A stretch of DNA of 64,000 nt from Deltaproteobacteria bacterium (GTDB taxonomy: Bacteria; Desulfobacterota; GWC2-55-46): NCBI GenBank assembly GCA_015075075.1, contig JABTVA010000008.1, positions 50,215 to 114,214 of the forward strand. Direction: 5' to 3'. A program made the position numbers and the translations under genes. Below, in pieces: positions 1 through 32,140 of this stretch. Numbering within the stretch: position 1 is the stretch's first letter; each line of letters begins with the position of its first letter. A model generated the notes under the pieces. The model saw nothing but the letters and a program-made list of their open reading frames with translations. It was not told where the DNA came from and searched no databases.

Positions 1-285
1 AAAGAGCTTAAGCAGCCTAAAGAATGGGTCTATTTTATAGTCCAGGAACGGATCGGAAAAACCGTATCATCCCTCACTGAATTAGGCGAACGCGATATTC
101 AGAAGTTATATCGAATTCTGATGTCTATGGGTAGATAGAAATCGAGTAGCTATAAATCAAAAAGTTATTGATTCTATACCTGCAAGTCCTGCCACATCCA
201 AGCACTTCCCACACGCGCGGCGCGATTTTTAGCATTTCCCCCTAACTTCCTTTAACAATCCCCAATAATCAAGCACGTCGGGATA

Positions 286-1473
286 TTGAGCGCCCTTCCG
301 CACCTCTTCGCCTCCATCATACAACTGAAGGGCCCGGACATAACGGAGAAGCTCCGTTCCCGGAAGCTCGCCGTGGGGCTTTTCATCCTCCTTCAGGCAT
401 TGATGCTCCCGCTGATGGTGGGGAGCTATTTCCTGGGCGACTGGAAGGTCGCGGCCTTCATAGCGGTTGTTGCGCTCTTTACGGCGTTCGGAGCCATCAC
501 GGTGCCGGCATGGGGGAGCCTCATGTCCGATCTGGTCGAGGAAGACAGGAGGGGCGAGTTCTTCGGCTGGCTCCAGAAGATCCTCGCCATAGTAACTGTA
601 TTAGCCACCTTCGTCGCCGGTTTCGTCCTCCACAGGGCCGAGAGGTCGGACGCCTTCTGGGGCTTTGCCGCCATATTCGGGCTTGCCTTCGCCTTCAGGC
701 TCGGCTCGTGGAGATACTTGAGAAAGATGCACGAGCCGCGCCTTGTAAGGAAGGAAGAGGATTACTTCTCTCTCCTGGATTTCGTCTCGAGGCTCCACAA
801 GAGCAACTTCCTCAAGTTCGTGGTCTTTGTCTCGGCCATGAAGTTCGCGGTCAATATCGCCTCCCCGTTCTTCGCGGTCCTGATGCTCAAGAACCTGGGG
901 TTCGGCTACATGACATTCACCCTGGTCACCCTTGCCGCGACAATGGCGACCATACTCTCCATAAAGCGGTGGGGCGTGCACGCGGACAGGGTCGGGAACC
1001 TGAAGGTGCTCCGCTCGACCTCAGTGCTCGTGGCCCTGATACCGCTCTTCTGGCTCGTGAACCAGAACCCCGTCTATCTCTTTTTCGTGCAGGTCTTCTC
1101 CGGGTTTGCGTGGGCCGGCTTCAACCTCTCGGCCTCGAATTTCATATACGACGCCGCGTCGCCCGGGAAAAGGGAGAGGTGCATCGCGTATTACAACTTC
1201 TTCGGGGGCGCGTCGCTCGCCCTCGGCTCTCTTCTCGGCGGCTGGCTTGCATGGGTCCTGCCCACGGGCTTTCTGGAGTTCAGGACCATGAACCTCATAC
1301 TCATATCCGCGATACTCCGCCTGGCGGTCGCGTTCTTCCTGCCTTTCAGGCTGAAGGAGGTGAGGGAGGTGGAGAAGATACGGACGCACGAGCTACTTTT
1401 CAGCATGCTGAGGCTCGGGCCCGCTCTGGCCCGGCTCGGGCGCGGGACAGGGAGGAAGGGGTTTACTTCGTGA
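286..1473 (+). CDS. MFS-type multi-TM transporter
   Basis: 395-aa ORF dominated by hydrophobic helices with MFS-like loop motifs. It is preceded by an AT-rich segment, so the true start is uncertain. Confidence 0.55.
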   Translation: MSALPHLFASIIQLKGPDITEKLRSRKLAVGLFILLQALMLPLMVGSYFLGDWKVAAFIAVVALFTAFGAITVPAWGSLMSDLVEEDRRGEFFGWLQKILAIVTVLATFVAGFVLHRAERSDAFWGFAAIFGLAFAFRLGSWRYLRKMHEPRLVRKEEDYFSLLDFVSRLHKSNFLKFVVFVSAMKFAVNIASPFFAVLMLKNLGFGYMTFTLVTLAATMATILSIKRWGVHADRVGNLKVLRSTSVLVALIPLFWLVNQNPVYLFFVQVFSGFAWAGFNLSASNFIYDAASPGKRERCIAYYNFFGGASLALGSLLGGWLAWVLPTGFLEFRTMNLILISAILRLAVAFFLPFRLKEVREVEKIRTHELLFSMLRLGPALARLGRGTGRKGFTS

Positions 1474-2470
1474 GGTATGAGCCCAGGGTCTCCCTCGTGC
1501 CCTCGAAGGTGGAGACGGTCTTTCTTGCCCACTCGGGCCTGACTTCGTACCCTTTGCTATCGGCGTAGCACGCGTCCACCGCCTCGCGGAGCACTTTGGT
1601 CATCGCGGCGACGTAGCTTTTTGTCCGCTGCCTGCCCTCTATCTTGAGGGCCGAAACGCCCGCGTCCATAAGGCCGGGCAGCACCCGGAGGACGTTCAGC
1701 GATTCCGGTTCCTCGAAGGCGTACTCGTAGCTCCCGCCAGGCGTCACATACCTCCCCTTGCAGCAGGTGGGATACGGCGAGGACTCGTCCTTGCCGAGCC
1801 TGTTGAGAGTGACCCCGTTCAGCGCGATGCTCATTCCGCCGTCCGCGGAAGGGTTGAAGCGGACGAACCTTGAAGGGGAGCACGCCCCTTCCGTATTGGT
1901 GGACGCGCCCGTGACCCAGGAGGAGAGATAGCACCTGCCTTCGATGTTTATGCAGAGGCCGCCGAGGGCGAAGACCTCAATCTCGGCGTCCGTCCTCTCC
2001 TTCAGGCGCTTCATCTCCTCGATTGTGAGCACCCGCGGCAAAACGACCCGTTTTATGCCGAAGTGCTTCCTGTAGAAGTTTATGGATTCGTAATTCGACG
2101 AGCTTGCCTGCGTTGAGAGGTGGAGGACCGAATCCGGGTGGCGCTCCCTGGCGTATTTGAGTATGCCGAGGTTGGCTATTATCACGGCGTCAGCGCCGAG
2201 CTCCACCGCCGCATCAACGGCCTTGTACCATTTGCCGGAGGTATCACCCTGCGGGAAGGTGTTTATCGCCACATAGAATTTCCGCCCCTTCGACCTGACG
2301 TACCCTATGCCGTCGGCTATCTCGGCGGGCGTGAAGTTGAGCCCCTCGAAGTTCCGGGCGTTTGTCGAGTCGCTGAAGCCCAGGTATACGGCGTCGGCCC
2401 CGTTGTCGATAGCGGCCTTAAGCGAGGCCAGGTTCCCGGCAGGGGACACAATCTCCGGTTTCCCTTTCAT
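1463..2470 (-). CDS. Peptidase U32 family (collagenase-like) protein
   Basis: 335-aa ORF with an N-terminal TIM-barrel-like 'GADAVYLG...NARNF' segment and the conserved Cys-rich C-terminal region typical of U32 peptidases. Confidence 0.8.
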   Translation of the reverse strand: MKGKPEIVSPAGNLASLKAAIDNGADAVYLGFSDSTNARNFEGLNFTPAEIADGIGYVRSKGRKFYVAINTFPQGDTSGKWYKAVDAAVELGADAVIIANLGILKYARERHPDSVLHLSTQASSSNYESINFYRKHFGIKRVVLPRVLTIEEMKRLKERTDAEIEVFALGGLCINIEGRCYLSSWVTGASTNTEGACSPSRFVRFNPSADGGMSIALNGVTLNRLGKDESSPYPTCCKGRYVTPGGSYEYAFEEPESLNVLRVLPGLMDAGVSALKIEGRQRTKSYVAAMTKVLREAVDACYADSKGYEVRPEWARKTVSTFEGTRETLGSYLTK

Positions 2471-2620
2471 GTGACCTCCACGCTTTTTTTATGGTACGCA
2501 CCAATATACAATTTCATATATTCCCGGTCAAACGCCGGATTTCCTGAAATATCCTTTATCTGGAGAGAATTGTCAAAGGCGGGTATCCGTGCCGGCAGCC
2601 CGGCACGGACCGAAGATATG

Positions 2621-3034
2621 TCAGAACGGCACGTCGTCTATGTCGCTTGGCGGAACGTCGTCTGCCGAGACGTCGGAGGCTCCCGCGGATGCGCCGGACT
2701 CGCCCCTGGACCCGAGCATCTGCATGATGTTGGCGAGGATCTCGGTCGTGTACTTTTTGTTGCCGTCCTTGTCCTCCCAGCTCCTTGTCTGAATCTTCCC
2801 CTCTATGTAGACCTGCTTGCCCTTGGAGAGGTACTCGCCGCATATCTCGGCGAGCTTGCCGAAGGCCACCACCCTGTGCCATTCGGTCTTGGTCTCCTTC
2901 TGCCCGTCCCTGTTGGCCCTGGTCTCGCTCGTGGCCAGCCTGAAGTTTGCCACCGCCATTCCGCCGGGGGTATAGCGCATCTCCGGGTCCGCGCCCAGGT
3001 TGCCGACCAGGATGACCTTGTTTATGCCTGCCAT
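2621..3034 (-). CDS. ssb: Single-stranded DNA-binding protein
   Basis: 137 aa. N-terminal OB-fold '[25 protein letters not shown]...' and acidic C-terminal tail '...DDVPF' are the canonical SSB signature. Confidence 0.92.
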
Positions 3035-3097
3035 GTGGACGTTCTCCTTTCAGATTGTGCGGCTATTATAACTACCGGCATGGCCGGTTGCAAGCCA

Positions 3098-4609
3098 TTA
3101 TTCCCCGGAGACGGCCCCCCATGCCTCAAGGTCCTTGAGATACCGATAGGCCGCCGGGTCCCCGAGCTCGTGCGCCTTTTTCATGCTGAGATATGAGTTC
3201 CTCCCGTCGCCGAGGTGCATGTAGGCCTTGCCGAGGTCTATGTGCATCGAGGAATCGGAAGGGTCGAGATCCGCTGCCTTCCGGAAGTCTTCGAGGGCGT
3301 CCCCGTACCGGCCCGCGATGGCATGGGCCGTGCCGCGCCCCTTGAACCCCTGTGCGTTGTCCGGGTATAACGCTATCTGGCGGCCCCATAACGTGAGAGA
3401 GTCCTTCCAGACCGCCTGTTGCCTGAATGTCATGGCGGAGAAGATGGCCGAAACCATGAAGACGGCCAGCAGCACTGGGAAGAAGGCCTTCGCGCGCCTC
3501 CGGACCGCCCAACCTGCGCCTGCGGAGGCAAGCATCGCGAAGCCTATGCCGGGGATGTACATGAACCTGTCGGCGGCGGCGTGCATCCCGACCTGCAATA
3601 TGCCGATTATCGGAAGGAGAGTCATAAGGAAGTAGGCCCATACGGAAACACAGACCCTGCTCCACCTGCAAAGATAGACGGCGAGCGCGGTAATCGCCGA
3701 AAGCGCAAGGACGTAAACCGCGAAGAGCGTATCGAGGCCCGCGGGGAAATCGCGGGGATAGAGCGGGGCGAGGTTGACCGGGATAAGCGTTTTATAGATA
3801 TAAAAAAGATAGCCCCTGGCGGTGATGTGCAGGCGGCCCTCAAGCGGGAGCGCTTCCGCGGATATTATGACGCTGTCCACAGTATGAGACCAGACGTTCA
3901 GAAGCCCCGTTGCCATGCTCAACGCGAAGAAGGGGGCCTTCTCCAGCACGAGCCTCTTCCAACCGTCAGTCCTGGACCTCTCAAGGGGGTAGAAGTCGAG
4001 TATGAGTAGCACAAGAGGCATGGTGACGGTCATGGGTTTACTGAGAAGCGACAGGACGAAAAAGACGAGCGTAAGCGCGTAGGATAATGCCTTCCGGCCC
4101 CGTGCATAGCTCAGATAGGCGTGCAGGCCCAGGAGGAAGAAAAAGGCGTTAAGGACGTCCTTCCTTTCGCTCACCCATGCGACCGATTCGACCTTGAGCG
4201 GGTGGAGCCCGAAGAGGAGGCCCGCTGAAAGGGCGATTATGAAGAGCGCCTTCGGCCTGAGGCCGCCCCTTGCTGACGCGAGCCTCGTTGCCAGCAGGGC
4301 CACGAGGAAGGCGTTCGCGCCGTGGAGTATCGCATTTGAAAGGTGGTAGCCGAAAGGGTCGAGGCCCCAGAACGCGTAATCGAGCGAGAAGGAGAGGAGC
4401 GTAACCGGGATCCAGGCGCCGTTCGCGAACGAGGTGAAGACGGCCTCGAGGTTCAGGCCCCGGATAGCCGTGTTGTTATGGACGTACATGAGGTCGTCCC
4501 AGTTGACGAAATCGAACGAGAGGGAGGGAAGGTAGATGACGAAAGAGGCCAGGGCCGATATGAGTGCGGCAACGAGGACTATCTTCGGTTGTCTTCTGTT
4601 TTCATTCAT
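3098..4609 (-). CDS. GT-C-fold (PMT_2/TMTC-like, DUF1736-type) membrane protein with C-terminal TPR repeats, paralog 1
   Basis: 503 aa. Multi-TM N-domain with an 'FDFVNWDD' loop motif (DD/DE motif of PMT/TMTC-type glycosyltransferases). C-terminal soluble TPR repeats ('...GRYGDALEDFRKAADLDP...'). First of four tandem paralogs. Confidence 0.7.
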   Translation of the reverse strand: MNENRRQPKIVLVAALISALASFVIYLPSLSFDFVNWDDLMYVHNNTAIRGLNLEAVFTSFANGAWIPVTLLSFSLDYAFWGLDPFGYHLSNAILHGANAFLVALLATRLASARGGLRPKALFIIALSAGLLFGLHPLKVESVAWVSERKDVLNAFFFLLGLHAYLSYARGRKALSYALTLVFFVLSLLSKPMTVTMPLVLLILDFYPLERSRTDGWKRLVLEKAPFFALSMATGLLNVWSHTVDSVIISAEALPLEGRLHITARGYLFYIYKTLIPVNLAPLYPRDFPAGLDTLFAVYVLALSAITALAVYLCRWSRVCVSVWAYFLMTLLPIIGILQVGMHAAADRFMYIPGIGFAMLASAGAGWAVRRRAKAFFPVLLAVFMVSAIFSAMTFRQQAVWKDSLTLWGRQIALYPDNAQGFKGRGTAHAIAGRYGDALEDFRKAADLDPSDSSMHIDLGKAYMHLGDGRNSYLSMKKAHELGDPAAYRYLKDLEAWGAVSGE

Positions 4610-4635
4610 TTCCGGTCCTGATCATCGGGGCCAGC

Positions 4636-6441
4636 TCATTTACCCGGGCCCTGCGCTTCGAGGTCCTTCAGATACCTTGAAGCCGCCGGGTCCCCGAGGT
4701 CATGGGCCCGCTTCATGCTGAGGTACGAGTTTTCGCTGTCGCCCAGGTGCATGTAGGCCTTTCCGAGGTCTATGTGCGCCGAAGGGTCCGCGGGGTCGAG
4801 CAGGACGGCGTTCTTGAAGTCCTCGACCGCCTTCCCGTACTGGCCTGAGATGGCATGTGCAACGCCGCGGGCCCTGTAAGCGTCCTTGTTCCGGGGGTCC
4901 CCGTCCAGGACGAACGTGAGGTCCGCGATCCCCTCCTCGAACCTGCCGGCGTTTACAAGGGCGCCCCCGCGTTTCATATAGGCGTCGGTCGATACCGGGC
5001 CGAGCTCTATCGCCCGGTCCAGGTTTTCGATGGCAAGGTCGAATTTACCGAGGCTTATATACGCGTTGGCGCGGTTCATGAACCCGCTCGCCGTGTCCGG
5101 GGTGATCCTGCCAAGGTCCTCCATGGCGAGGTCGAGCCTCCCCTGGACGAGATAGGCGTTCCCCCGGTTTACATACCCGTATGGATGGTCCGGGAAGAGC
5201 CTTATCTGCTGGTTCCAGAGTGAGAAAGAGTCCTTCCATACGGATATCTGCTTGAGCGCAAGAATTGAGAGCAATGCCGAGGCCGCGATAATTACAGCCA
5301 GGACCGGCGCGAACGCGCCCTTTTTCCTTTCCGCCAGCCTCCCGGCCCCTGCCGCGACGAGCACGGCGATCCCCATGCCAGGGATATATGTGTACCTGTC
5401 AGCCGCGGCCTGCATCCCCACCTGCACGAGCCCTATTACCGGGATTAGCGTTATCACGAAGTAGGCCCAGACCGCGATGAAGGCCCAGCTCCGCCTCCGA
5501 AGTAAAATCGCGAGCGCGGTCAGGGCCGAAAGCGCGAGCACATAGAGGGCGAAAAGGCCAGGTCCCATAGCGAAGTCGCGGGGGTATACAGGCGCAAGAT
5601 TGACCGGCACGAGGGTCTTGTAGATATAGAAGAGATAGCCCCGGGCCGCGATATGGAGACGGCTCCCGAAGGCAAGCTCTTCTGCCGGGACCATTGCCAT
5701 GGTCTGGGACCACATGGTAGCGAGCACGGCTGCCAGGCTCAATATGATAAAAGGGAGCTTCTCTATTATTAGCCTTTTCCAGCCGTCTTTTCTATGCCTC
5801 CCGAGCGGATACAGGTCGAGTATCAATAAAACCAGCGGCATGGTTACGGTCATGGGCTTGCTGAGGAGCGATAAAACAAAAAAGACGAGCGTCAAAACAT
5901 ATGAGGAAGCCTTTTTGGTTTTGGCGTAGCCGAGATAGGAAAGGACACCCAGGAGGAAAAAGAAGGCGTTAAGGACGTCCTTCCTTTCGCTTATCCAGGC
6001 AACCGACTCTACCCTGAGGGGATGGAGCCCGAATAGGAGCCCGGCTGAAATGGCTATTATGAAGAGCGCCTTTGCATTCGAGCCCCTTGTCCCCGCGAGC
6101 CTTGCCGCGAGCAGGGCCACAAGGAAAACGTTAGCCGCGTGGAGCGCCGAGTTCGTCAGGTGATAGCCCAATGGGTTAAGCCCCCAGAGGGCGTAATCGA
6201 GAGAGAGGGATAGGAACGTTACAGGGACCCACGTCCCGAGGATGACGGATGTAAAGGCCCACTTGAGGCCGGGCCCCTGCAATCGGGGGTTCTCATAGAC
6301 GTAGAGCTGGTCGTCCCAGTTTACGAAATCGAAGCCGAGGGAAGGGAGATAGAGCGCGAATGCGGCTATGGCCGATAAGAGGGCCGCGATGAGGATTATG
6401 TTTTCTGGTTTGCGGTTATCCGGCATACCGGAACGGTCCAT
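4636..6441 (-). CDS. GT-C-fold (PMT_2/TMTC-like) membrane protein with C-terminal TPR repeats, paralog 2
   Basis: 601 aa. Same architecture as paralog 1 ('FDFVNWDD' loop, about 11 TM helices, longer TPR domain). Confidence 0.7.
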   Translation of the reverse strand: MDRSGMPDNRKPENIILIAALLSAIAAFALYLPSLGFDFVNWDDQLYVYENPRLQGPGLKWAFTSVILGTWVPVTFLSLSLDYALWGLNPLGYHLTNSALHAANVFLVALLAARLAGTRGSNAKALFIIAISAGLLFGLHPLRVESVAWISERKDVLNAFFFLLGVLSYLGYAKTKKASSYVLTLVFFVLSLLSKPMTVTMPLVLLILDLYPLGRHRKDGWKRLIIEKLPFIILSLAAVLATMWSQTMAMVPAEELAFGSRLHIAARGYLFYIYKTLVPVNLAPVYPRDFAMGPGLFALYVLALSALTALAILLRRRSWAFIAVWAYFVITLIPVIGLVQVGMQAAADRYTYIPGMGIAVLVAAGAGRLAERKKGAFAPVLAVIIAASALLSILALKQISVWKDSFSLWNQQIRLFPDHPYGYVNRGNAYLVQGRLDLAMEDLGRITPDTASGFMNRANAYISLGKFDLAIENLDRAIELGPVSTDAYMKRGGALVNAGRFEEGIADLTFVLDGDPRNKDAYRARGVAHAISGQYGKAVEDFKNAVLLDPADPSAHIDLGKAYMHLGDSENSYLSMKRAHDLGDPAASRYLKDLEAQGPGK

Positions 6442-6671
6442 ATGAAGATTGTTGAAGGTTTTCAGGAGTTTACCACCGGGGCCCGCCGGTTTGCAAGCCG
6501 ATATTACCTTTGTCCGGCGCCCCTGGCCTCAAGGTCCGAAATGTATCTGGAGGCAGAAGTGTCGCCGAGCTCAAGCGCCTTTCTCATGCTGGCGTATGAT
6601 CTCTCGAAATTGCCGAGGTGCATATATACCTTGCCGAGGTCAATGTGCGCGGACGGGTCCGAGGGGTCGAG
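6371..6671. repeat. Near-identical ~300-bp segmental duplication, copy A (gene 3 end / intergenic / gene 2 start)
   Basis: Direct sequence comparison. Positions 6380-6612 match 8170-8402 exactly, with scattered mismatches beyond. Confidence 0.9.
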
Positions 6672-8228
6672 CGCAATCGCCTTCTGGAAGTCTTTAAGCG
6701 CATCGACGTAACGGCCTGCAAGGGCGTATGCCGTGCCGCGCGCCTTGTATACGGCCTTGCTTTCAGGGTCCGAATCCACTAACACGGTGAGGTCGGCGAT
6801 CCCTTTATCGAGCCTGCCCGCATTTACGAGGGCTACTCCGCGATTGAAATATATCTCGTTTATGAACGAAGGATGGAGGCTTACGCTCTTGTCCAGGTCT
6901 TTGATGGCATCTTCGTACATTCCCTTGGCAAGGTACACGGCGCCGCGGTTTACGTACCCGTATGCATAATCCGGGAAGAGCCTGACCTGATGGCTCCAGA
7001 GGGACAGTGAGTCCTTCCATACTCCAGCCTGCCCGAGCGTAGTGAAAGAGAGAAGGGCCGAGGCCGCTACCACTGAAGCCAGGACCGGCGCGAACGCGCT
7101 CCGGTTCTTTCCCGCGGCCCACCCTGCCCCTGCCGCAGCCAGTACCGCGAGGCCCATCCCCGGAATATAGGTGTATCTGTCGGCCGCGGCCTGCATCCCG
7201 ACCTGCAAAAACCCTATTACCGGGAGGAGCGTTACCGCAAAATAGGCCCAAACGGCTATGAAAACCCCGCTCCGCCTCCTGAGATAGACGGCGAGCGCCG
7301 TAATCGCAAGGAGCGCGAGGGCATAGGCCGCAAAGTGAAGGTTAAGGCCGGTTTGGAAATTCCGCGGGTAAAGTGGGGCGAGGTCCATGGGCGCAAGGGT
7401 CTTGTAGATATAAAAGAGGTAGCCTCTTTCCGCGACATGGAGCCGTCCGCTAAAGACGAGCTCCTGGACCGTGACCATTGCCTTGCTCTGCGACCAGACG
7501 GTGATAAGCCCGGTCGCGAGGCTCAGCATGAAGAAAGGGAGCTTCTCGATAACGGGCCTCGTCCAGCCTTCTTTCCTGAACCTGTCGAATGGGTAGAAGT
7601 CGAGTATCAGGAGCACGAGCGGCATGGTGACGGTCATGGGCTTACTGAGAAGCGAGAGGACGAAAAAGACAAGCGCCAATATATACGACGAGGCTTTTTT
7701 GTGCTTGGCGTAGCCGAGATAGGAAAGGATACCCAGGAGGAAAAAGAACGCGTTCAGGACGTCCTTTCTTTCACTTATCCAGACCACGGACTCTACCCTT
7801 AGCGGATGGAGCCCGAAGAGGAGCCCGGCTGAAAGGGCGATTAAAAATAGCCCCCGTGCCCCGAAGCCGCCTCTTGTCCCCGCGAGCCTCGCGCCGAGCA
7901 AGGCGACAAGAAAGACGTTTGCCGCATGGAGTGCCGAGTTCGTGAGGTGGTATCCCAGCGGGTTCAGTCCCCATATGGCGTAATCGAGCGTGAAGGAGAG
8001 GAAAGTTACTGGCACCCATGTCCCGACCACGACCGAGGTAAAGGCCTGTTTGAGATCCAGGCCCCGGATATCCGGGTTCCCGGTCACGTAGGAAGGGTCG
8101 TCCAGGTCCACGAACTCGAAACCGAGGGAAGGCAGATAGACCGCGAACGAAGCCACGGCCGATAGGAGGGCCGCGATGAGGATTATGTTTTCTGGTTTGC
8201 GGTTATCCGGCATACCGGAACGGTCCAT
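6504..8228 (-). CDS. GT-C-fold (PMT_2/TMTC-like) membrane protein with C-terminal TPR repeats, paralog 3
   Basis: 574 aa. N-terminus identical to paralog 2 ('MDRSGMPDNRKPENIILIAALLSA'). C-terminus identical to paralog 4 ('...SYASMRKALELGDTSASRYISDLEARGAGQR'). Confidence 0.7.
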   Translation of the reverse strand: MDRSGMPDNRKPENIILIAALLSAVASFAVYLPSLGFEFVDLDDPSYVTGNPDIRGLDLKQAFTSVVVGTWVPVTFLSFTLDYAIWGLNPLGYHLTNSALHAANVFLVALLGARLAGTRGGFGARGLFLIALSAGLLFGLHPLRVESVVWISERKDVLNAFFFLLGILSYLGYAKHKKASSYILALVFFVLSLLSKPMTVTMPLVLLILDFYPFDRFRKEGWTRPVIEKLPFFMLSLATGLITVWSQSKAMVTVQELVFSGRLHVAERGYLFYIYKTLAPMDLAPLYPRNFQTGLNLHFAAYALALLAITALAVYLRRRSGVFIAVWAYFAVTLLPVIGFLQVGMQAAADRYTYIPGMGLAVLAAAGAGWAAGKNRSAFAPVLASVVAASALLSFTTLGQAGVWKDSLSLWSHQVRLFPDYAYGYVNRGAVYLAKGMYEDAIKDLDKSVSLHPSFINEIYFNRGVALVNAGRLDKGIADLTVLVDSDPESKAVYKARGTAYALAGRYVDALKDFQKAIALDPSDPSAHIDLGKVYMHLGNFERSYASMRKALELGDTSASRYISDLEARGAGQR

Positions 8229-8461
8229 ATGAAGATTGTTGAAGGTTTTCAGGAGTTTACCACCGGGGCCCGCCGGTTTGCAAGCCGATATTACCTTTGT
8301 CCGGCGCCCCTGGCCTCAAGGTCCGAAATGTATCTGGAGGCAGAAGTGTCGCCGAGCTCAAGCGCCTTTCTCATGCTGGCGTATGATCTTTCGAAATTGC
8401 CGAGGTGCATATATACCTTGCCGAGGTCTATGTGCGCCGAAGGGTCTCCGGGGTCGAGCTC
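8161..8461. repeat. Near-identical ~300-bp segmental duplication, copy B (gene 4 end / intergenic / gene 3 start)
   Basis: See copy A. Includes the identical 62-bp intergenic spacer. Confidence 0.9.
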
Positions 8462-10090
8462 CGCTGCCTTCAGGAAGTCTTCGAGCGCCTCCCCGTATTG
8501 GCCGGAAATGGCGTATGCGGTGCCGCGCGCCCTGAATATGGCCTTGTTCCCCGGGTCTGAATCGAGGACTACAGTAAAATCCGAGATACCTTCCCTGAAC
8601 CTGCCGGCGTTTACGAGGGCGCTCCCGCGGCTTGAGTACGCAGGCAATGTGTTCGGCTCCAGCTCTATGGCCTTATCGAGGTCCGGGATGGCCAGGTCGA
8701 ACCTGCCGAGGGTCAAATAGGCGTTCCCGCGGTTAAAGTACCCGTGGCCGCTTTCAGGAGACATCTTACGGAGGTCCTCTATCGCGGATTCGTTCATGCC
8801 AAGCGCAACATAAGCGGCGCTCCGGTTCACATACCCCTGGCTGTGGGACGGGAAGACCTCTATCTGCCGGCTCCAGAGGGAGACCGGATTTTTCCAGATC
8901 ATTTCCTGCTTGAAGGCGAAAAAGGAGAGTAGCCCCGATGCCGCCAAAACCAGCGCCAAAACGGCCGGGAGACTTTTGCTATTCCTTTTCACAATCCAGC
9001 CTGCCGCGGCGGAAACGAGAATCGCCAGTCCGATGGCCGGAATATATGTATACCTGTCGGCAGCCGCCTGCCTTCCTACCTGCATGAGGCCTATGACAGG
9101 GAGCAGCGTGACCGCGTAGCAGGCCCATGCGGAAATAAAGGCCTTGCTCCATCTACGAAGGTAAAGGGCGAGAATGGTTATGGCTGCAAGCGCCGCGAGG
9201 TAAAGGACCGCCGAAAGGTTAAGGCCTGAGGCGAAGTCGCGGGGGTAGAGGGGCGCAAGGCCGGCCGGGATGACCGACTTGTAAATATAGAATAGATACC
9301 CCCTCGCCGCGATATGGATCCGGTCGGCGAACGGGAGCGCCTCCGGCGGCATCACGGCCTTTCCCTGCGACCAGATGGTCATTAGCCCGGCTGCCAGGCT
9401 CAGCATTAAAAATGGGAGTTTTTCAATTAGCGGCCTCTTCCACCCTTCCCTCTTGAGCCTTTCAAGAGGATAGTAGTCTAATATGAGAAGCACGAGCGGC
9501 ATGGTGACCGTCATGGGCTTACTTAGAAGTGAAAGGACGAAAAGGACGAGCGTCAATACATAGGAGGATGCCTTTTTGTTTTCAGCATACCCGAGATAGG
9601 CGTGGAGGCCGAGGAGAAAGAAGAAGGCGTTCAGGACGTCCTTTCTTTCGCTGACCCATGCCACTGACTCGGCCCTTAGAGGGTGTAGTCCGAAAAGGAG
9701 CCCGGCCGAGAGGGCCATGAGGAATAGCCCGCCTGCCCCGAGACCGCCCCTTCTGCCGGCGAGCCTCGCGGCCAGGAAGGCCACGAGAAAGACGTTGGCG
9801 GAGTGGAGTATCGTGTTCGTGAGGTGGTACCCCAGCGGGTCCAGCCCCCATACGGCGTAATCGAGGGCGAATGACAGGAACGTGAGCGGTATCCAGGTGC
9901 CTACCACGACAGCCGTGAAGGCCCATTTGAGGTCAATGCCCTGGATATCAGGGTTCTCGGATACGTACGCGGGGTCGTCCCAGTCAACGAAATCGAAGCC
10001 CAGGGAAGGGAGATAGAGCGCGAATGCGGCTATAGCGGATATGAGGGCCGCGAGGAAAATAAGTTTAAAAGAATAATCTCTTTCCGGCAT
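8291..10090 (-). CDS. GT-C-fold (PMT_2/TMTC-like) membrane protein with C-terminal TPR repeats, paralog 4
   Basis: 599 aa, same architecture ('FDFVDWDD'). Confidence 0.7.
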   Translation of the reverse strand: MPERDYSFKLIFLAALISAIAAFALYLPSLGFDFVDWDDPAYVSENPDIQGIDLKWAFTAVVVGTWIPLTFLSFALDYAVWGLDPLGYHLTNTILHSANVFLVAFLAARLAGRRGGLGAGGLFLMALSAGLLFGLHPLRAESVAWVSERKDVLNAFFFLLGLHAYLGYAENKKASSYVLTLVLFVLSLLSKPMTVTMPLVLLILDYYPLERLKREGWKRPLIEKLPFLMLSLAAGLMTIWSQGKAVMPPEALPFADRIHIAARGYLFYIYKSVIPAGLAPLYPRDFASGLNLSAVLYLAALAAITILALYLRRWSKAFISAWACYAVTLLPVIGLMQVGRQAAADRYTYIPAIGLAILVSAAAGWIVKRNSKSLPAVLALVLAASGLLSFFAFKQEMIWKNPVSLWSRQIEVFPSHSQGYVNRSAAYVALGMNESAIEDLRKMSPESGHGYFNRGNAYLTLGRFDLAIPDLDKAIELEPNTLPAYSSRGSALVNAGRFREGISDFTVVLDSDPGNKAIFRARGTAYAISGQYGEALEDFLKAAELDPGDPSAHIDLGKVYMHLGNFERSYASMRKALELGDTSASRYISDLEARGAGQR

Positions 10091-10344
10091 TCCTTTTCCC
10101 AGGCTCTTTGCAATAAAGAGCGGCCCTTTCCGGCTGGACTGCTTGCGCGTTAACCGCTTGCAAGCTTTAAGGAAATTGACTCGAGTTCGTCCGTTTAGTC
10201 AGCCAGTATACCATTGCGGGGTTTTGGTTTGCAAGGGTGCCGCGGCCCGGGATTTTTTTGTGCTATTAGGGCGTTTCGCATGATATATTATGACGATTAA
10301 GGACCGAGGAGAGACTCCGCCCCGGCTGGGGCGCGCATTCGCCT

Positions 10345-11058
10345 ATGACCGTTCTGAGGACCCTTGCCGTATGGCTCCTGGGCCTGCCCATAACCATAGC
10401 CCTTTTCATCCTCGTCCTCTTTTCCCTTCCGTTCGAAAGGCAGGGCAGGGCCGTCCATTCGATAGGGGCCTTCTGGTCGAGGGTGGTGCTCGCGCTATCG
10501 GGCGTAAGGGTGGACGTGCAAGGAAGGGAGAACGTCCCTTCGGGCAGGCCTGTTATCTTCGTCTCCAACCACCAGGGCGCCTTTGATATACCCGCGCTCC
10601 AGGCCTTTTTGCCCGTGCAGTTCCGCTGGGTGGCCAAAAAGAGCCTTTTCAGGATACCGGTCATAGGCTGGAGCATGAGCCTTGCCGGGTATGTAGGCAT
10701 CGACAGGGACAACCCGGCGGAGGCCATGAAGAACATGGAAGAGGCCTCGGAAAAGATAAAAAGGGGTACTTCGGTATTGATATTCCCCGAGGGCACGAGG
10801 TCCGGTTCTGTCCGGCTCCTCCCCTTTAAGCGAGGGGCCTTCGTCCTCGCAAAAAAAAGCGGCGTCCCTGTCGTGCCTGTCGCAATAGACGGCACTTCGG
10901 ATATAATGAGGCGTGGGGGCATCCTCATAAGGCCATCGCGTGTCAGGATACGGATAGGCAGGCTCGTGGAAACCGGGCCTCTTGACGAGAAGGAGCTACG
11001 GAACAGGATGAAGAAGGACATAGAAGGACTGTTGCAGGCCGGGGCAGGGAGGCCCTGA
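10345..11058 (+). CDS. plsC: 1-acyl-sn-glycerol-3-phosphate acyltransferase
   Basis: 237 aa. Has the 'NHQGAFD' (HX4D) and 'FPEGTR' acyltransferase motifs and an N-terminal TM anchor. Confidence 0.85.
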   Translation: MTVLRTLAVWLLGLPITIALFILVLFSLPFERQGRAVHSIGAFWSRVVLALSGVRVDVQGRENVPSGRPVIFVSNHQGAFDIPALQAFLPVQFRWVAKKSLFRIPVIGWSMSLAGYVGIDRDNPAEAMKNMEEASEKIKRGTSVLIFPEGTRSGSVRLLPFKRGAFVLAKKSGVPVVPVAIDGTSDIMRRGGILIRPSRVRIRIGRLVETGPLDEKELRNRMKKDIEGLLQAGAGRP

Positions 11059-11067
11059 AGAGGATTC

Positions 11068-12729
11068 ATGGGAGAGCCCCTTAAGATAATCCCGCTCGGC
11101 GGGCTGGGCGAGATAGGCCTTAACATGATGGCCATCGAGTACGGCGACTCCATAATGGTCGTGGACTGCGGCCTCATGTTCCCCGAGGACTACATGCTCG
11201 GGATAGACATCGTCATCCCGGACGTGAGCTATCTTAAGAAGAACGCCGAAAAGGTAAAGGCCTACATAATAACCCACGGCCACGAGGACCACACCGGCGC
11301 CCTGCCTTTCATCCTGCCCCAGGTCGACGCGCCTATATACGGCACCGCCCTCACCATAGGTCTCATAGAGGAAAAGCTCGAGGAGTTCGGACTCGCCAAA
11401 TCGACATTATTCGAGACGGTCCGCCCGAGGGACAGGGTATCCATAGGGCCCTTTGATATAGAATTCATACGCGTCAGCCACTCGATAGTGGACGGCTGCG
11501 GCCTTGCCATAAGGACGCCCGTGGGCACCGTTATCCATACCGGGGACTTCAAGATGGACCAGACCCCGGTGGACGGAGAGGTAATGGACTACGCCCGGTT
11601 CTCGGAATACGGTGAATCCGGGGTGCTCCTTCTCATGTCGGACTCGACGAACGTCGAAAAGGAGGGCTATTCCCTTTCCGAGCGCGAGATAGGGAAAAAC
11701 CTCGAGGAGATATTCAGGAGGTGCGAGGGCAGGATAATAGTCGCCGCCTTCTCCTCCAACATACACCGCATCCAGCAGGTCATGGAAGCCGCCGCAAGGC
11801 ACGGGCGCAGAGTGATACTCAACGGCAAGAGCATGGTCGCCAACGTGCGGATAGCGCACGCCCTCGGGTATCTCAAGTACCCGGAAGGGCTCATGGCCGA
11901 CTTGAAGGAAATAGACTCGATACCCCACGACCAGGTCGTGCTCCTCACTACCGGGAGCCAGGGCGAGCCCATGAGCGCCCTTACCCGCATGGCAATGGAC
12001 AACCACAAGCAGATAAAGGTAAGGAAGGGCGATACCGTCATCCTTTCCTCCAAGTTCATACCCGGCCACGAGAAGGCCATATCCACCATGATGAACCACC
12101 TCTACAGGAGAGGCGCTGACGTCATATACGAGAAGGTCTCGGAGGTGCACGTCTCCGGGCACGCGAGCCAGGAGGAGCTTAAGATAATGCTCAACATGGT
12201 GCGCCCGAAATACTTTATCCCGGTGCACGGCGAGTACAGGCACCTGGTCCTCCATTCGAGGCTCGCCGCGAGGATCGGCATACCTGAAGAGAACGTAATA
12301 ATAGCCGAGGACGGGGACGTGGTCGAGTTCGCCCCTGAAGGCGGGTTCGTGAAGGCCGGGAAGGTCGAGTCCGGGAGGGTATTCGTTGACGGCAAGGGCG
12401 TGGGAGACGTGGGCGAGATGGTATTGAAGGACAGGAACCACCTGGCCCAGGACGGCATGGTGCTCGCCCTCGTTGCCATAAACGCCACGACCGGCGACAT
12501 GGTCTACGGCCCCGAGATAGTGACCCGCGGGCTTGTGCTCGAAGAGGGCAGGCCCGGCCTCATCGAGGAAGCCCGGAAGGTGGTCATAGAGTCGCTCAAC
12601 AGCCTCAATGCCGAGGTAAAGACCGAGCAGCTCGAGATAAAGGAAGAGGTGAGGAGGGCGCTACGCCGTTACTTCAACAGGACGTTGGAGCGGAAACCCG
12701 TCATACTCCCGATGATAATCGAGATATAG
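11068..12729 (+). CDS. rnj: Ribonuclease J (metallo-beta-lactamase/beta-CASP RNase)
   Basis: 553 aa with the 'HGHEDHTGALP' MBL motif and beta-CASP C-terminal domain. Length and motifs are typical of RNase J. Confidence 0.85.
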   Translation: MGEPLKIIPLGGLGEIGLNMMAIEYGDSIMVVDCGLMFPEDYMLGIDIVIPDVSYLKKNAEKVKAYIITHGHEDHTGALPFILPQVDAPIYGTALTIGLIEEKLEEFGLAKSTLFETVRPRDRVSIGPFDIEFIRVSHSIVDGCGLAIRTPVGTVIHTGDFKMDQTPVDGEVMDYARFSEYGESGVLLLMSDSTNVEKEGYSLSEREIGKNLEEIFRRCEGRIIVAAFSSNIHRIQQVMEAAARHGRRVILNGKSMVANVRIAHALGYLKYPEGLMADLKEIDSIPHDQVVLLTTGSQGEPMSALTRMAMDNHKQIKVRKGDTVILSSKFIPGHEKAISTMMNHLYRRGADVIYEKVSEVHVSGHASQEELKIMLNMVRPKYFIPVHGEYRHLVLHSRLAARIGIPEENVIIAEDGDVVEFAPEGGFVKAGKVESGRVFVDGKGVGDVGEMVLKDRNHLAQDGMVLALVAINATTGDMVYGPEIVTRGLVLEEGRPGLIEEARKVVIESLNSLNAEVKTEQLEIKEEVRRALRRYFNRTLERKPVILPMIIEI

Positions 12730-12860
12730 GCTGCTGCTCAAAAAATCCATCTGCGTCGAAGGCTACGTCGCTGGACACTCCGGCGTACGCGAAAAGTACG
12801 CCTCGTTCCTTGCTCCCCTGTTCCTAATGGGGCCTCGCATCCGGAGCTTTTTGAGCAGCC
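12729..12860. mobile_element. MITE-like element, family C (TIR GGCTGCTCAAAAA / TTTTTGAGCAGCC)
   Basis: Terminal inverted repeats. Homologous copies at 24033, 31811, 35350 and 56511. Its 3' end is read through by the artificial N-terminal extension of the next ORF. Confidence 0.7.
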
Positions 12861-12913
12861 TAAGCGAATTTTGTATTTTCCCGCAACCTGTTGGCCGAAG
12901 GGTTTTTATTGAG

Positions 12914-14017
12914 ATGAGCTCGAAAGTCTACTTCGCGGACCTGAGGACCACCCCCAAAAGAAACCTACATAACAAGCTCGACTCCCTCCTTGAGAACGTA
13001 GGCATAAGGGAGAGGTTCAGGAAAGGGCACCTTGTCGCCCTTAAGCTCCATTTCGGGGAAAAGGGCAACGCCTCCTACGTGAGGCCCGTTTTCGTAAGGC
13101 GGATCGTCGAGCGCGTAAGGGAGACAGGCGGAAACCCCTTTCTTACCGACACAAACACCCTTTACGTAGGCACCAGGGGCAACACGGTAGACCACCTGAG
13201 GACCGCCGTCGAGAACGGCTTCGATTTCGCCGTGGTCTCAGCCCCCCTCGTCATAGCCGACGGCTTAAGGGGAGCCTCCGGGACGCCGATAAGGGTAGGG
13301 GGGAAGCACCTCAGGGAAGTAAGCATAGCGAGCGAGATAGTCGCCGCCGACGGGCTCGTGGCGGTGACCCATTTCAAATGCCACGAGCTTTCCGGCTTCG
13401 GGGGCGCGTTGAAGAACGTCGGCATGGGGTGCGCAAGCCGCGAGGGGAAGCTCGCGCAGCACTCGAACTGCTCCCCGATCGTAGACCCCGGAGGCTGCGT
13501 TGCCTGCGGCGACTGCGCCGCCGCGTGCCCCTCGGGGGCCATAACGGTCGGGACCGCCGCAGTCATAGACAAGGAGGCCTGCATAGGATGCGGCCACTGC
13601 ATCGCCGTTTGCCCGGAGGGTACGATAAAGGTAAGCTGGGACGAGTCGTCCGGGAGGCTCCAGGAGAAGATGGTCGAGCACTTCGAGGGGGCCGTCAAGG
13701 GGAAGTCTGGCAGGTGCGTATATATCTCATTCGTGACCCAGGTGAGCCCGGCCTGCGACTGCTACGGCCATAACGACGCCCCCATAGTGCCGGACGCCGG
13801 GGTGCTGGCCTCGATTGACCCGGTGGCCATAGACCAGGCCGCTGCGGACATCGTAAACGGGATGGAAGGGTTCAGGGGGAGCGCCTTAAGGAGCGGGCAC
13901 GGGCCGGGTGGCGACAAGTTCAGGGGGGTCCACCCTTCCGTAGACTGGGAAGTGCAGCTGTCATACGCCGAGGAGAGGGGCCTCGGGTCGAGGGATTACT
14001 CCCTTGTTAAAATCTGA
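12914..14017 (+). CDS. DUF362 domain protein with 2x[4Fe-4S] ferredoxin domain
   Basis: DUF362-like N-region followed by 'CVACGDCAAACP' and 'CIGCGHCIAVCP' cluster motifs. Start was moved to the ATG at 12914, downstream of the MITE-derived extension. Confidence 0.7.
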   Translation: MSSKVYFADLRTTPKRNLHNKLDSLLENVGIRERFRKGHLVALKLHFGEKGNASYVRPVFVRRIVERVRETGGNPFLTDTNTLYVGTRGNTVDHLRTAVENGFDFAVVSAPLVIADGLRGASGTPIRVGGKHLREVSIASEIVAADGLVAVTHFKCHELSGFGGALKNVGMGCASREGKLAQHSNCSPIVDPGGCVACGDCAAACPSGAITVGTAAVIDKEACIGCGHCIAVCPEGTIKVSWDESSGRLQEKMVEHFEGAVKGKSGRCVYISFVTQVSPACDCYGHNDAPIVPDAGVLASIDPVAIDQAAADIVNGMEGFRGSALRSGHGPGGDKFRGVHPSVDWEVQLSYAEERGLGSRDYSLVKI

Positions 14018-14053
14018 TATCATGGGTTTGGCGGTAAGCCGGACGGAGCGGAT

Positions 14054-15921
14054 ATGGCGGTAAAGAAGATAGGCGAGCTCCTGGTCGAATCAGGGCTCAT
14101 AATGAGGACCAGCTCGAAGAGGCCCTTGCCGCGGGCAAGGAGAACAAGGGCACCAGGACAGGCGCCCTGCTCGTAAAGCTCGGGTACGCAACGGAGATTG
14201 ACATAGCCCAGACCCTCTCCTACCAGGTCGGCATCCCCTTCGTGGATATGGCTTCCACGACCGTGGACCCGGAGAGCATCAAGCTGGTCAACGAAAAGCT
14301 CGCCAGGAAGTACCTCCTTGTGCCGCTCTACCATGACAAGAAGGTCCTGAGGGTCGCCATGTCGGACCCGCTGAACCTGAACGCCATAGACGACCTGAGG
14401 TTTTCGACGGGCTTGGAGATACAGCCCTTCATCTCCACGCTCTCGGACATCAACGCCGCGATATCGAGGCACTATCACCTGAACGAGCCCATGATGGACG
14501 AGATACTGGGCGATTTCAAGAAGGACAGGTACGTCGAGGTATTCCACGAGTCCGAATCGAGCAGGGACCTTTCCGAGCAGGTAAAGAAGTCCGCCGCCCC
14601 GCCCATCATAAAGATGGTCGATTCCATCCTGATACACGGCTTCGACAACAGGGCGAGCGACATCCACATCGAGCCGCAGGAAAAGGGCGTGAAGCTCAGG
14701 ATACGGGTGGACGGGCTCATGCGCGAAACCAAGCAGCTCCCCAAATGGGTGCAGGGGCCTGTCGTTTCGAGGATAAAGATAATGGCCCGGATGGACATAG
14801 CCGAGAGGAGGACGGCCCAGGACGGCAGGTTCAAGGTGCGGATAGGGGAAAAGAGCATGGACGTGAGGGTCTCGTCGCTCCCGACCCAGCACGGCGAGAC
14901 GATAGTCATGCGGCTCCTCGACCCCAAGGCCGCCATGATAGACATAGAGGGCATAGGGATAGGAAAGGGTGAGCTCGACCGGGTGCTTGATATCATAGAG
15001 CGCCCCCAGGGGGTCGTGCTCGTCACCGGCCCCACTGGCTCGGGAAAGACCTCGACCCTTTACGCCATGCTCGCCCGCATAAAAAAGGAAGAGATAAACA
15101 TAATCACGATAGAGGACCCGATAGAGTACGAGCTCAAGGACGTAAACCAGGTGGCCGTGAACGACAAGACCGGCCTGACCTTCTCGTACACCCTGAGGTC
15201 GGTACTACGGCAGGACCCGGACGTCATACTCGTCGGCGAGATGAGGGACGCGGAGACGGCCACGATCGCCCACCAGGCCTCCCTTACGGGGCACCTTGTC
15301 TTCTCGACCCTGCACACAAACGACGCGGTATCATCGGTAACGAGGCTCCGTAACCTCGGCGTGCCTTCGTACATGATAGCGTCGGCCCTGAACGGCATAG
15401 TGGCCCAGAGGCTCGTGAGGATGATATGCAAGGGGTGCAGGGAGGAGTACACGCCGACCGGGCAGGAGATACGGAAGGCTGGGCTCAAGTGGTCCGGGAA
15501 GAAGCTCTACAGGGGCGCGGGATGCAGCCTCTGCGCCAATACCGGCTACTCGGGGAGGACCGGGATATTCGAGATAATATCGGTAAACGGCGCGATAAAG
15601 AACCTCATAGCCGCCGACGCCCCCGAGCACGAGATAATCGCCGCCGCCCTGGAAGGCGGCATGACCCCCATGCACATGGACGGGCTCGATAAGGTCTCTT
15701 CCGGCATAACCACGCTCGAAGAGCTCGCTCGGGTCATATACATGGCCAAGGAACCGGTATGCCCGGTTTGCCTTAAGACCGTACCGGCCGGTACGGAGAG
15801 ATGCGGCGAATGCGAAGCTGCCAAGGCCGCCGTCTGTCAATGGTGCGGGAAGGGACGGGAGGAGGGCTGGGTAGCGTGCCCCTGGTGCGCGCACGAGTTC
15901 GCCGCCGCCCCGCTATCATGA
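14054..15921 (+). CDS. MshE/GspE/PilB-family secretion ATPase with N-terminal c-di-GMP-binding MshEN-type domain and extra C-terminal double zinc ribbon; apparent -1 frameshift near 14100
   Basis: Walker A 'VLVTGPTGSGKTSTL' and the canonical tetracysteine 'CKGCREEY...CSLCANTGY'. Upstream, in another frame, 'MAVKKIGELLVESGLI|TEDQLEEAL...LVKLGYATEIDIAQTLSYQ' matches the MshEN motifs. The intact ORF starts at 14242. The C-terminus adds 'CPVCLK...CGECEA...CQWC...CPWCAHEF'. Confidence 0.75.
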
Positions 15922-16055
15922 TGTTGAAAAGCACTTCCTGGACTTTTTCAATCACGGCTTGGCCGGAATAATCCGTCCAAGCCCCGCAAAATGCTCGACC
16001 TTGGACAGTCTTCGCAATTTGGCATCCATCCGTGGATTGCATATCAGGATGTTTT
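15922..16055. repeat. Structured repeat element, family E (copy 1), abutting the stop codon of the ATPase gene
   Basis: About 135 bp with nested inverted repeats (TTGAAAAAGTCC...GGACTTTTTCAA; GGCTTGG...CCAAGCC; GTTGAAAAA...TTTTTCAAC). A second copy at 52580 is about 85% identical. Confidence 0.75.
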
Positions 16056-16213
16056 TCAACACCCTGATAAAGTCCTGATGAGGCCTGCTCCTTTTCGGGG
16101 CTTTCCCTTTTTCCTGCTATCCTGATTTCCATGAGCCAGGCTTTTTTTGGTTTGCGGAAAAGTTCCACTTGTGATATATTCCGGCAATCCACTATGTGAG
16201 CGAGTTCAGGCGG

Positions 16214-16252
16214 GGGCCTTCCCCGAAGGTACCCCCTCGTTTTTAATGCTTC
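16214..16252 (+). terminator. Possible intrinsic terminator
   Basis: GC-rich imperfect hairpin 'GGGGGCCTT...AAGGTACCCCC' followed by 'TCGTTTTTA'. Confidence 0.3.
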
Positions 16253-16276
16253 TTGTTCTGAATCCTCTGCCCTGAG

Positions 16277-16846
16277 ATGCTGAAATCCTCGCTGACCATA
16301 GCGCTCTTTGCCTTGGCTTGCATGCCGGGCTCCGCAATCGGGGAATTCTTTTCAATGGACCCGGCCCCTGCGGACAGGCCGTTCCTGGAACAAAAGAGGA
16401 AGCCGGGCGATATTAAGAAGGACAAGTACGGCCTCCCGGACCCCACTCCAGACGTAATCTCCCTTACGCACCTTCCAAAGGACCGATACGGCTTCGTAGA
16501 CTGGGCCGAGGCCATCTCCACGGGCGTAATCTCGCCGAAATCGTCGATCGACGGCTTGCCCGCAAGGCTCTCTCCCGTTGACAGGGAGAGGTTCGACGGG
16601 GACGTCCTCATAAGGTCCGGGAAGGAATTCATGCCGGACGTGCTCTTCCCGCATTCGGCCCACAACGAGTGGCTCAAGTGCTCCACCTGCCACCCCCGCA
16701 TATTCTCGAAGAAGGCCGGCGCGAGCCGCATTACGATGACGGGGATATGGAAGGGCAGGTTCTGCGGCGTATGCCATGACAAGGTGGCCTTTCCGACGAG
16801 GAACTGCTTCAAATGCCATTCGGTTCGGAAGGACGCGGGGAAATAG
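16277..16846 (+). CDS. Periplasmic triheme c-type cytochrome
   Basis: Signal peptide 'MLKSSLTIALFALACMPGSA'. Three CxxCH motifs (CSTCH, CGVCH, CFKCH). Confidence 0.75.
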   Translation: MLKSSLTIALFALACMPGSAIGEFFSMDPAPADRPFLEQKRKPGDIKKDKYGLPDPTPDVISLTHLPKDRYGFVDWAEAISTGVISPKSSIDGLPARLSPVDRERFDGDVLIRSGKEFMPDVLFPHSAHNEWLKCSTCHPRIFSKKAGASRITMTGIWKGRFCGVCHDKVAFPTRNCFKCHSVRKDAGK

Positions 16847-19737: not shown

Positions 19738-19880
19738 TTGTTGTCATTGCGGAGCTTTGGCTCGAAGCAATCTCAAATGCCCGATATTCCAAAAAATGAG
19801 AGTGCTTCCCGCCACGCTTCGCTCGCGGCTTCGGCTCACACGCTCGCAATGACGAATATGCGAATCAGTCAGAGCTTCCT
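19738..19880. mobile_element. MITE-like element, family B (degenerate copy)
   Basis: Shares the core 'TTGTCATTGC...GATTGCTTCCCGCCACGCTTCGCTCGCGGCTTCGGCTCACACGCTCGCAATGACGAA' with the copy at 22226. The right TIR is degenerate ('GAATCAGTCAGAGCTTCC'). Confidence 0.65.
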
Positions 19881-19912
19881 TAACTTGGTGCTCTTAAGAA
19901 GAGTCGGCCTGT

Positions 19913-22114: not shown

Positions 22115-22225
22115 TTTCCTTTTCCTGGAGAAATGTCGCGCTTCTGATTGACGGGTTGAGGTCTTTCCAGGCTGCTATCCCGTTCCGGGCAGCCTGGCAT
22201 CCCGCCGCGGGAATGGGCTGGTTTA

Positions 22226-22398: not shown

Positions 22399-22544
22399 TT
22401 AGTTTTGATTTTTATTCCAAAATTCCGGCTTTTCGCGCGTAATCGGAATATTTGCCCGCCCGTCCTGTATACCAGCCTGGCCCTCGGTAGAGCCGGGCAG
22501 AAGGCCTGAACTAAATATTCTGTATTTCTCGGCTTTCGTCAAGC

Positions 22545-32124: not shown

Positions 32125-32140
32125 TACATGGTATCCAGAG

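Follow-up and report, generated by a model that had tools for sequence, protein, structure and literature searches.

How can a gene share its beginning with one neighbor and its end with the other, while its body resembles neither of them closely? This question is raised by an array of four paralogous genes in the window analyzed here, by which we mean a whole stretch of 64,000 nt from contig JABTVA010000008.1 of a 'Deltaproteobacteria bacterium' (assembly GCA_015075075.1). The genes are arranged in tandem on the minus strand, in the transcription order g4 > g3 > g2 > g1 (Table 1), and their DNA is 65–76% identical, i.e. ca. 30% diverged, outside of a tract, designated J, that is repeated at the g4/g3 and g3/g2 junctions. 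We conclude below that J is probably a recent gene conversion tract, which extends across a gene boundary and connects neighboring junctions of an array of variable copy number, whose genes are predicted to encode membrane proteins with a GT-C fold and tetratricopeptide repeats (TPR).

Positions 6379–6641 of the window correspond to positions 8166–8428, with an offset of 1787 nt, and the two copies of this 263 bp tract contain a single mismatch (262/263 identical). The mismatch (6603/8390) separates exact runs of 224 bp (6379–6602) and 38 bp (6604–6641) and is synonymous: position 6603, in copy B, belongs to a GAG codon, as in the relatives, which is GAA in copy A. The copies thus agree throughout the intergenic spacer, and their 186 coding nt contain this synonymous difference and no other. 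The edges of the tract are sharp, since divergence increases from 0 to about 25–35% within 20 nt at both boundaries, and the 300-nt flanks of the two copies show 65% identity on one side and 75% on the other. Elsewhere, pairwise comparison of the four paralogs revealed no exact run of more than 38 nt. A Sawyer-type permutation runs test identified 103 concordant variable sites in a row for the pair g2–g3 and 92 for g3–g4, with permutation maxima of 22 and 21, respectively (P<1e-4). For g2–g4 the signal was nominal and weak, consisting of a run of 11 (P=0.006) that stays below the permutation maximum of 16, and no signal was obtained for the three pairs including g1. The repeat is real, well outside what chance would produce. 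The initial annotation of this DNA had reported positions 6380–6612 and 8170–8402 as identical; it was right about the existence of the repeat, although the second interval is displaced by 3 nt and the identity is broken by one mismatch. Taken literally, those intervals show an identity of only 25%, their offset being 1790 nt instead of the true 1787 nt.

The tract begins in a conserved C-terminal TPR block, crosses the spacer with its promoter-like site, and stops in the first transmembrane helix of the following gene. Reading the minus strand, g3 has the N-terminus of g2 and the C-terminus of g4 around a different body, exactly as first described, and the repeated block does consist of the spacer plus 5′ and 3′ gene ends. 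The spacer length originally given, 62 bp, was nevertheless based on open reading frames (ORFs), and amounts to 77 nt when counted from the conserved start codon. The position of this start became apparent from comparison with two relatives, L002 (a Logan contig, about 88–90% identical to the window) and L004 (CP129479.1, a closed genome of 2.75 Mb). In both of them, the first ATG is taken out of the reading frame of the g2-type gene by a 1-nt insertion and, therefore, the conserved start is the second ATG (position 8213 for g3 and 6426 for g2), in agreement with the deposited proteins of 569 and 596 aa. Translation of g3 and g2 thus probably does not start at the first ATG of their ORFs (MDRSG..., positions 8214–8228 and 6427–6441). 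Within the spacer, the promoter-like site is conserved in L002 and L004, and resembles both the site found upstream of g4 and the homologous spacer of a more distant array. A scan for consensus promoters and terminators gave results for the array that were within shuffled expectation and did not list the site in J, so that we designate it as promoter-like from direct reading and from its conservation. Likewise, no Rfam family was found within the array.

The ends and the body of g3 show very different degrees of divergence. Between the ends of the tract (about 507 codons), the nucleotide sequence of g3 differs by 27% from that of g2 and by 30% from that of g4, and the divergence at 4-fold sites is 0.68 for g3–g2 and about 1.0 for g3–g4. 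The corresponding values for orthologs, comparing the window with L002 and L004, are 0.19–0.26. Since divergence in the body is three to five times the ortholog level, the body of g3 is an old paralog, older than the separation from these species, which have three genes instead of four. The phylogenies are in conflict along the gene: in trees of the membrane domain, g3 is placed outside the clade formed by g2 and its orthologs, as sister to it, and in the tree of the last 45 residues g3 equals g4, both being apart from b4 and c4, the g4 orthologs of L002 and L004. Identity between g3 and g4 climbs from the body toward J, with successive values of 72, 78, 87, and 98%. Judging from these comparisons, the ends of g3 appear to have been homogenized very recently, at a distance of ca. 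2% of that separating the array from the three-gene species. The G+C content at third codon positions is 0.72 in g3, vs 0.71–0.78 in the other three genes of the array; its composition is native, with no sign of a foreign origin.

These data bear on two ways in which the junctions could have become alike other than by conversion. The initial annotation had proposed recent unequal crossing-over as well as gene conversion, and g3 could indeed be seen as a hybrid formed when g2 and g4, on sister chromosomes, underwent a single recent unequal crossover: a g2-like start, a g4-like end and identical junctions on both sides are the topology expected at the birth of such a gene. However, a hybrid would equal its parents throughout, whereas the body of g3 shows the 27–30% nucleotide difference from both of them and the 4-fold divergence given above, vs 1/263 in J, and occupies an old branch in the trees. 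Additionally, g3 lacks a 31-residue segment of the TPR domain that is present in both g2 and g4, and its entire body would have to have been exchanged for foreign DNA in a second event. The divergence of the body thus rejects a single recent g2/g4 crossover as the origin of g3, which we consider very improbable. Alternatively, purifying selection on a functional element (promoter, leader or terminal peptides) could maintain identity without any recombination. The spacer is about 89% conserved between species and includes a conserved promoter-like site, and the adjoining coding blocks are conserved at the protein level in all paralogs, as this explanation would have it. Nevertheless, selection is ruled out because synonymous and spacer sites are also alike, the two copies of J differing by 0.4% while they differ by 11–12% from the orthologous J of L002 and L004. 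Furthermore, neither the g2/g1 junction nor the region upstream of g4 is homogenized, and RNA folding of the spacer region indicated an ordinary stability (z = 0.01). Selection without recombination is, therefore, scarcely credible. Gene conversion, in turn, is supported by the identity of the tract, the runs test, the identity at synonymous sites and the conflict among trees.

Comparison with the relatives shows what the locus looks like without g3. The regions from L002 and L004 are syntenic with the window, with genes for an acyltransferase and RNase J on one side of the array and for SSB, peptidase U32 and an MFS transporter on the other, but contain only three array genes, orthologous to g4, g2 and g1, and one J. 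A sliding-window comparison showed that their middle gene is an ortholog of g2 over its full length, and that their single junction is homologous to J. The possibility that the middle gene of L002 is a g3/g2 hybrid was thereby discarded. We then constructed in silico the product of a deletion by recombination between the two copies of J (J x J), consisting of the left flank of copy A, J, and the right flank of copy B. This product is colinear with L002 and L004, with identities of 91–92% in the left flank, 88–89% in J and 92% in the right flank, vs only 64–76% for the non-matching flanks. The array of the two sister species is exactly the J x J deletion product, lacking the 1787-bp unit formed by the g3 body and one J. 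More distant syntenic arrays vary further in copy number, with two genes in L009, at least two in L010, and at least four in both L007 and L008. In L009 (GCA_964508625.1), positions 1291–1830 and 3014–3553 form a tract of 540 bp with 2 mismatches, 450 bp of it exact, between paralogs that are 69% identical elsewhere; this tract is situated inside the membrane-domain bodies of the two-gene array. Conversion-like tracts also occur in L007 (86 bp) and L008 (84 bp), and the spacer between the second and third genes of L007 (d2/d3) is J-like. With syntenic arrays of 2, 3, 4 or at least 4 copies and independent conversion-like tracts, the early impression that the array is actively rearranging holds true over evolutionary time.

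Since repeats of this kind are prone to collapse during assembly, a risk legitimately raised in the initial annotation, we examined how the locus is represented in other assemblies. The g3 product is 100% identical to MBE7415129.1, from a 'Deltaproteobacteria bacterium' metagenome-assembled genome (119-kb contig), and the same four proteins have consecutive accessions, hence the same order, in a 476-kb contig (MCL4873075-78) and in a 182-kb contig of GCA_048500075.1 (L001). The four-gene order with a single g3 is thus found in three assemblies, which are possibly not independent. Exact look-ups of the proteins as translated from the ORF starts retrieved no entry from an index that does not contain the source assembly. 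L001 is 99.98% identical to positions 1–16426 of the window, with only two differences over 16.4 kb: a substitution at 9727, in g4, and a 1-bp deletion (one C) at 6516–6517 (about 9910 in L001), in the center of J copy B only. The deletion alters the last four codons of g3, whose product is then 580 aa instead of 569, running through the spacer to the −10-like TGGTAA; the 476-kb contig encodes the same 580-aa product. This indel is either a real polymorphism or an error of one assembly at the center of the repeat.

In the extreme case, the 263-bp repeat would be a collapsed or mis-threaded node of a short-read graph, and the true number of g3 copies, the mixture of strains or the likeness of the junctions would be different. 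With 224 bp, the exact run exceeds the usual k-mers and the length of typical short reads, and the path g4-J-g3-J-g2 rests on pairing or coverage. Moreover, the other two assemblies differ only at 9727 and in the center of J copy B, where a collapsed repeat would erase a variant, and the configuration g4-J-g2 does exist in related species. However, the three assemblies agree on one order and a single g3, which in part weakens the concern. Since the g3 body must join J at both ends and J lacks other partners, a J-flanked g3 has to be present in at least some genomes. The off-center mismatch at 6603/8390 was also kept, so the copies were resolved separately there. A pure assembly artifact is thus decidedly improbable. 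Logan contigs of the same species did not bear on this point. We expected them to break at J, which turned out not to be the case: the three shown (3/3; SRR11593520, SRR19543875, and SRR21762700) start at position 6367 of the window, inside an exact repeat of 32 nt shared by g2 and g4 (6338–6369 and 10002–10033), and five contigs from five runs carry the g1 protein. The 32-nt repeat breaks k=31 graphs ahead of J and, therefore, these contigs are silent on J. A literature search with the assembly accessions found no paper describing these assemblies. Short-read assemblies of this organism are, in any case, untrustworthy here at the level of single bases or of copy number.

From the comparisons above we infer the mechanism, the direction and number of events, and a loss of g3 in the relatives rather than its gain here. 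RecA-type homologous recombination between misaligned neighboring units would have made the g4/g3 and g3/g2 boundaries alike over 263 bp, by non-reciprocal transfer in one or a few events. Some observations weigh against this interpretation. The exact identity in the middle of J may be slightly overstated by short-read assembly, since the L001 indel in copy B lies >120 nt from either unique flank, where a short-read graph would collapse a variant. Each half of J is about as distant from the one junction of the three-gene relatives as orthologs are from each other; one conversion between already diverged junctions is therefore insufficient, and either two events or a long-standing concerted evolution must be assumed. 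Lastly, a search among 5.8 billion proteins yielded no g3 ortholog with >66% identity from outside this species and, as a consequence, the loss of an ancestral g3 in the relatives is inseparable from the gain of g3 here.

The last of these points leads to the alternative that the g3 unit was gained in this lineage. The ancestor would then have been g4-J-g2-g1, and a divergent body with a J-like junction, coming for instance from a circular excision product or from DNA of another strain, would have integrated at J by homologous recombination, duplicating it. The empty site with a single J in both sister genomes, the failure to find g3 in other organisms and the orthology of both J halves to the single J of the relatives are all in line with a gain, and one gain is as parsimonious on the tree as one loss. 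On the contrary, the composition of the g3 body is native, and its membrane domain is sister to the g2 clade of the same group. The presence of at least four genes in distant syntenic arrays, with a J-type spacer at the L007 d2/d3 junction, also suggests an ancestor with four genes. Besides, a donor with a J-flanked g3 would already be required, which merely moves the problem elsewhere. We thus regard a gain as rather unlikely. A scan of genome contigs with g3 retrieved only unrelated TPR proteins (from Brachyspira and Planctomycetales), and two metagenome scans with conserved patterns from the spacer returned no matches.

Gene conversion could have proceeded in two ways. There could have been two events, with g2 as the donor of the 5′ region of g3 and g4 as the donor of its 3′ region, g3 being the recipient at both ends. 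Alternatively, concerted evolution of the two junctions could have begun before the species diverged, the relatives later losing g3 via J x J recombination. We favor concerted evolution with loss of g3 in the relatives because one process explains everything; it also fits the J-like spacer of L007, the stepwise rise in identity between g3 and g4, and the independent tracts in L009, L007, and L008.

The mechanism itself is known and the feature is biologically ordinary. Ectopic gene conversion and concerted evolution of bacterial paralogs have been described for rRNA operons and duplicated prokaryotic genes (PMC6053082, PMC8022953), as well as for PE/PPE and other repeat families of Mycobacterium tuberculosis (PMC12046097, PMC13061034). 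The array resembles these cases in having a short, near-identical tract in otherwise diverged paralogs, with sharp edges, a tract tree in conflict with the flank tree, and a tract that is clearest against a sister species. It differs from them in that J straddles a gene boundary, including a 3′ end, a spacer with a promoter-like site and a 5′ end, so that three genes are affected and the middle one becomes a repeat-flanked unit; non-reciprocity and RecA dependence are here presumed. Two further systems invite comparison. In Helicobacter pylori, babA and babB, which are at dispersed loci and involved in antigenic and adhesin variation, have conserved ends and a variable middle, and exchange sequences by recombination. 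As in babA/babB, the 5′ and 3′ ends are common to the array paralogs while the center is divergent, and the shared ends provide homology for further exchange; unlike them, the array genes lie side by side, each shared end derives from a different neighbor, and the pattern is known from comparison between species. In classical bacterial duplication and amplification, direct repeats and unequal exchange between sister chromosomes delete or amplify tandem segments. The 263-bp direct repeats around a body of 1.5 kb match this situation, and the single repeat of the relatives is what would remain after loop-out or unequal exchange, although what is observed here is only a difference between species.

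The proteins encoded by the array are of interest on their own. Searches against Pfam and NCBIfam hit only the C-terminal TPR repeats, and the membrane domain, of 400 residues, had no match in Pfam (E up to 10) or NCBIfam, nor among PDB sequences. This domain (positions 7014–8213 of the window in g3, and the equivalents in g1, g2, and g4) was nonetheless modeled confidently as a GT-C fold, resembling in fold the PMT, STT3, and ArnT enzymes. Residues D38 and D39 (FVNWDD), modeled in the first extracytoplasmic loop, show no variation among 105 homologs, and the invariant blocks of the membrane domain are DD, HP..E, SERKD, SKP, and DRY.Y. There are >3,400 homologs at E<=1e-20, most of them annotated merely as 'tetratricopeptide repeat protein'. 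The eukaryotic protein O-mannosyltransferases TMTC1–4 consist of an N-terminal GT-C membrane domain followed by TPR repeats, and an acidic DD/DE motif in the first extracytoplasmic loop is a hallmark of TMTC mannosyltransferases (PMC7801869). The array proteins present the three elements, i.e. a multi-helix GT-C membrane domain, a DD motif in the first loop and a C-terminal TPR array, with the same domain order, a similar number of membrane helices and an invariant DD; their HP...E block (LHPLRVESVAW) also resembles FAVHPIHT of TMTC3. Unlike TMTC1–4, they are bacterial and encoded in tandem arrays, and their activity is putative. Moreover, the membrane domain gave no match to Pfam DUF1736, the TMTC loop between transmembrane helices 7 and 8, and the proteins are therefore considered TMTC-like in architecture and not filed as members of the TMTC family. 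The products of g1 to g4 are thus predicted to be membrane glycosyltransferase-like proteins with a TMTC-like layout.

Table 1. Features of the array and of the rest of the window; positions are those of the window unless stated otherwise.
Feature	Position (nt)	Strand	Description
g4, first gene of the array	8291..10090	-	599 aa; GT-C-fold membrane domain (modeled) + TPR domain; orthologs b4 (L002) and c4 (L004)
g3	6504..8213	-	569 aa from the conserved second ATG; first ATG of the ORF at 8228; body of an old paralog, ends probably converted
g2	4636..6426	-	596 aa from the second ATG; first ATG of the ORF at 6441; full-length ortholog of bM (L002) and cM (L004)
g1, last gene of the array	3098..4609	-	503 aa; shortened TPR domain; 26-nt spacer after g2; outside tract J
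Junction tract J, copy A	8166..8428	-	last 45 codons + stop of g4 (8291-8428); 77-nt spacer (8214-8290); first 16 codons of g3 (8166-8213)
Junction tract J, copy B	6379..6641	-	last 45 codons + stop of g3 (6504-6641); 77-nt spacer (6427-6503); first 16 codons of g2 (6379-6426)
Promoter-like site in J copy A	8254..8283	-	TTGCAA-N18-TAAACT, preceded by TGG; direct reading
Promoter-like site in J copy B	6467..6496	-	sequence as in copy A; direct reading
Promoter-like site upstream of g4	10205..10234	-	TTGCAA-N18-TATACT; conserved in L002
1787-bp unit (g3 body + one J)	6642..8428, equivalently 6379-8165 (position ambiguous within J)	-	missing from the three-gene arrays of the relatives
Dispersed repeat, copies	12733-12890, 24033-24311, 31811-31942, 32025-32181, 35384-35495, 39077-39340, 56503-56761, 59940-59989		
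Dispersed repeat, further copies	19775-19882, 22223-22406; L004 about 9866-10033		
Cobalamin riboswitch	37674-37858	+	108 bits, above the Rfam gathering score
Molybdenum/tungsten cofactor riboswitch	52846-52977	+	58.5 bits, above the Rfam gathering score

Other features were observed in the window and its relatives. Short intergenic repeats with terminal inverted repeats GCTGCTCAAAAAG ... CTTTTTGAGCAGC are dispersed in the window, and look like miniature inverted-repeat transposable elements (MITE) or repetitive extragenic palindromic (REP) sequences. One copy in L004, 90% identical to positions 56503–56668 of the window, is inserted upstream of the g4 ortholog, where it separates the start codon from the promoter-like site; it is missing from the same site in the window and, therefore, the element moved recently. 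Two riboswitches and no tRNA genes were found in the window. The sister genomes also contain, between the genes for SSB and peptidase U32, a signaling gene for a product of 960 aa with domains dCache-HAMP-GAF-GGDEF-EAL (L002 8670–11552; L004 16016–18898), which is missing from the window (about 2471–2620) and from L001.

As a consequence of the proposed conversion, g3 and g2 would now have in common the promoter-like site, the 5′ leader and the cytoplasmic N-terminal tail, and g3 and g4 would share the last 45 residues, corresponding to the terminal TPR helices. Being bracketed by direct repeats of 263 bp, g3 would also be prone to deletion or amplification as the 1787-bp unit. The repeats could even constitute a built-in recombination module instead of a passive scar, in which the junctions, with their promoter, leader and terminal peptides, are kept homogenized and J x J recombination serves to excise, re-insert or amplify whole bodies, such as the 1787-bp g3 unit. 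Such a module would be compatible with the range from two to four or more copies at this syntenic locus and with the exact empty site of the sister species, but we consider it improbable. If true, it would imply a reversible variation in the copy number and repertoire of periplasmic TPR-glycosyltransferases, i.e. a cassette system for the specificity of envelope glycosylation.

With J as a probable conversion tract, the locus offers a clean and datable case of gene conversion over a gene boundary, including a promoter-like site, in an uncultured lineage of Thermodesulfobacteriota type. It would illustrate that conversion can create direct repeats that afterwards delete a paralog, and that concerted evolution can mislead trees and orthology calls of this family at the gene ends; the start codons of g3 and g2 are also corrected. 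The predicted GT-C plus TPR family, whose membrane domain is without a model in Pfam or NCBIfam, may outlast the repeat itself in interest.

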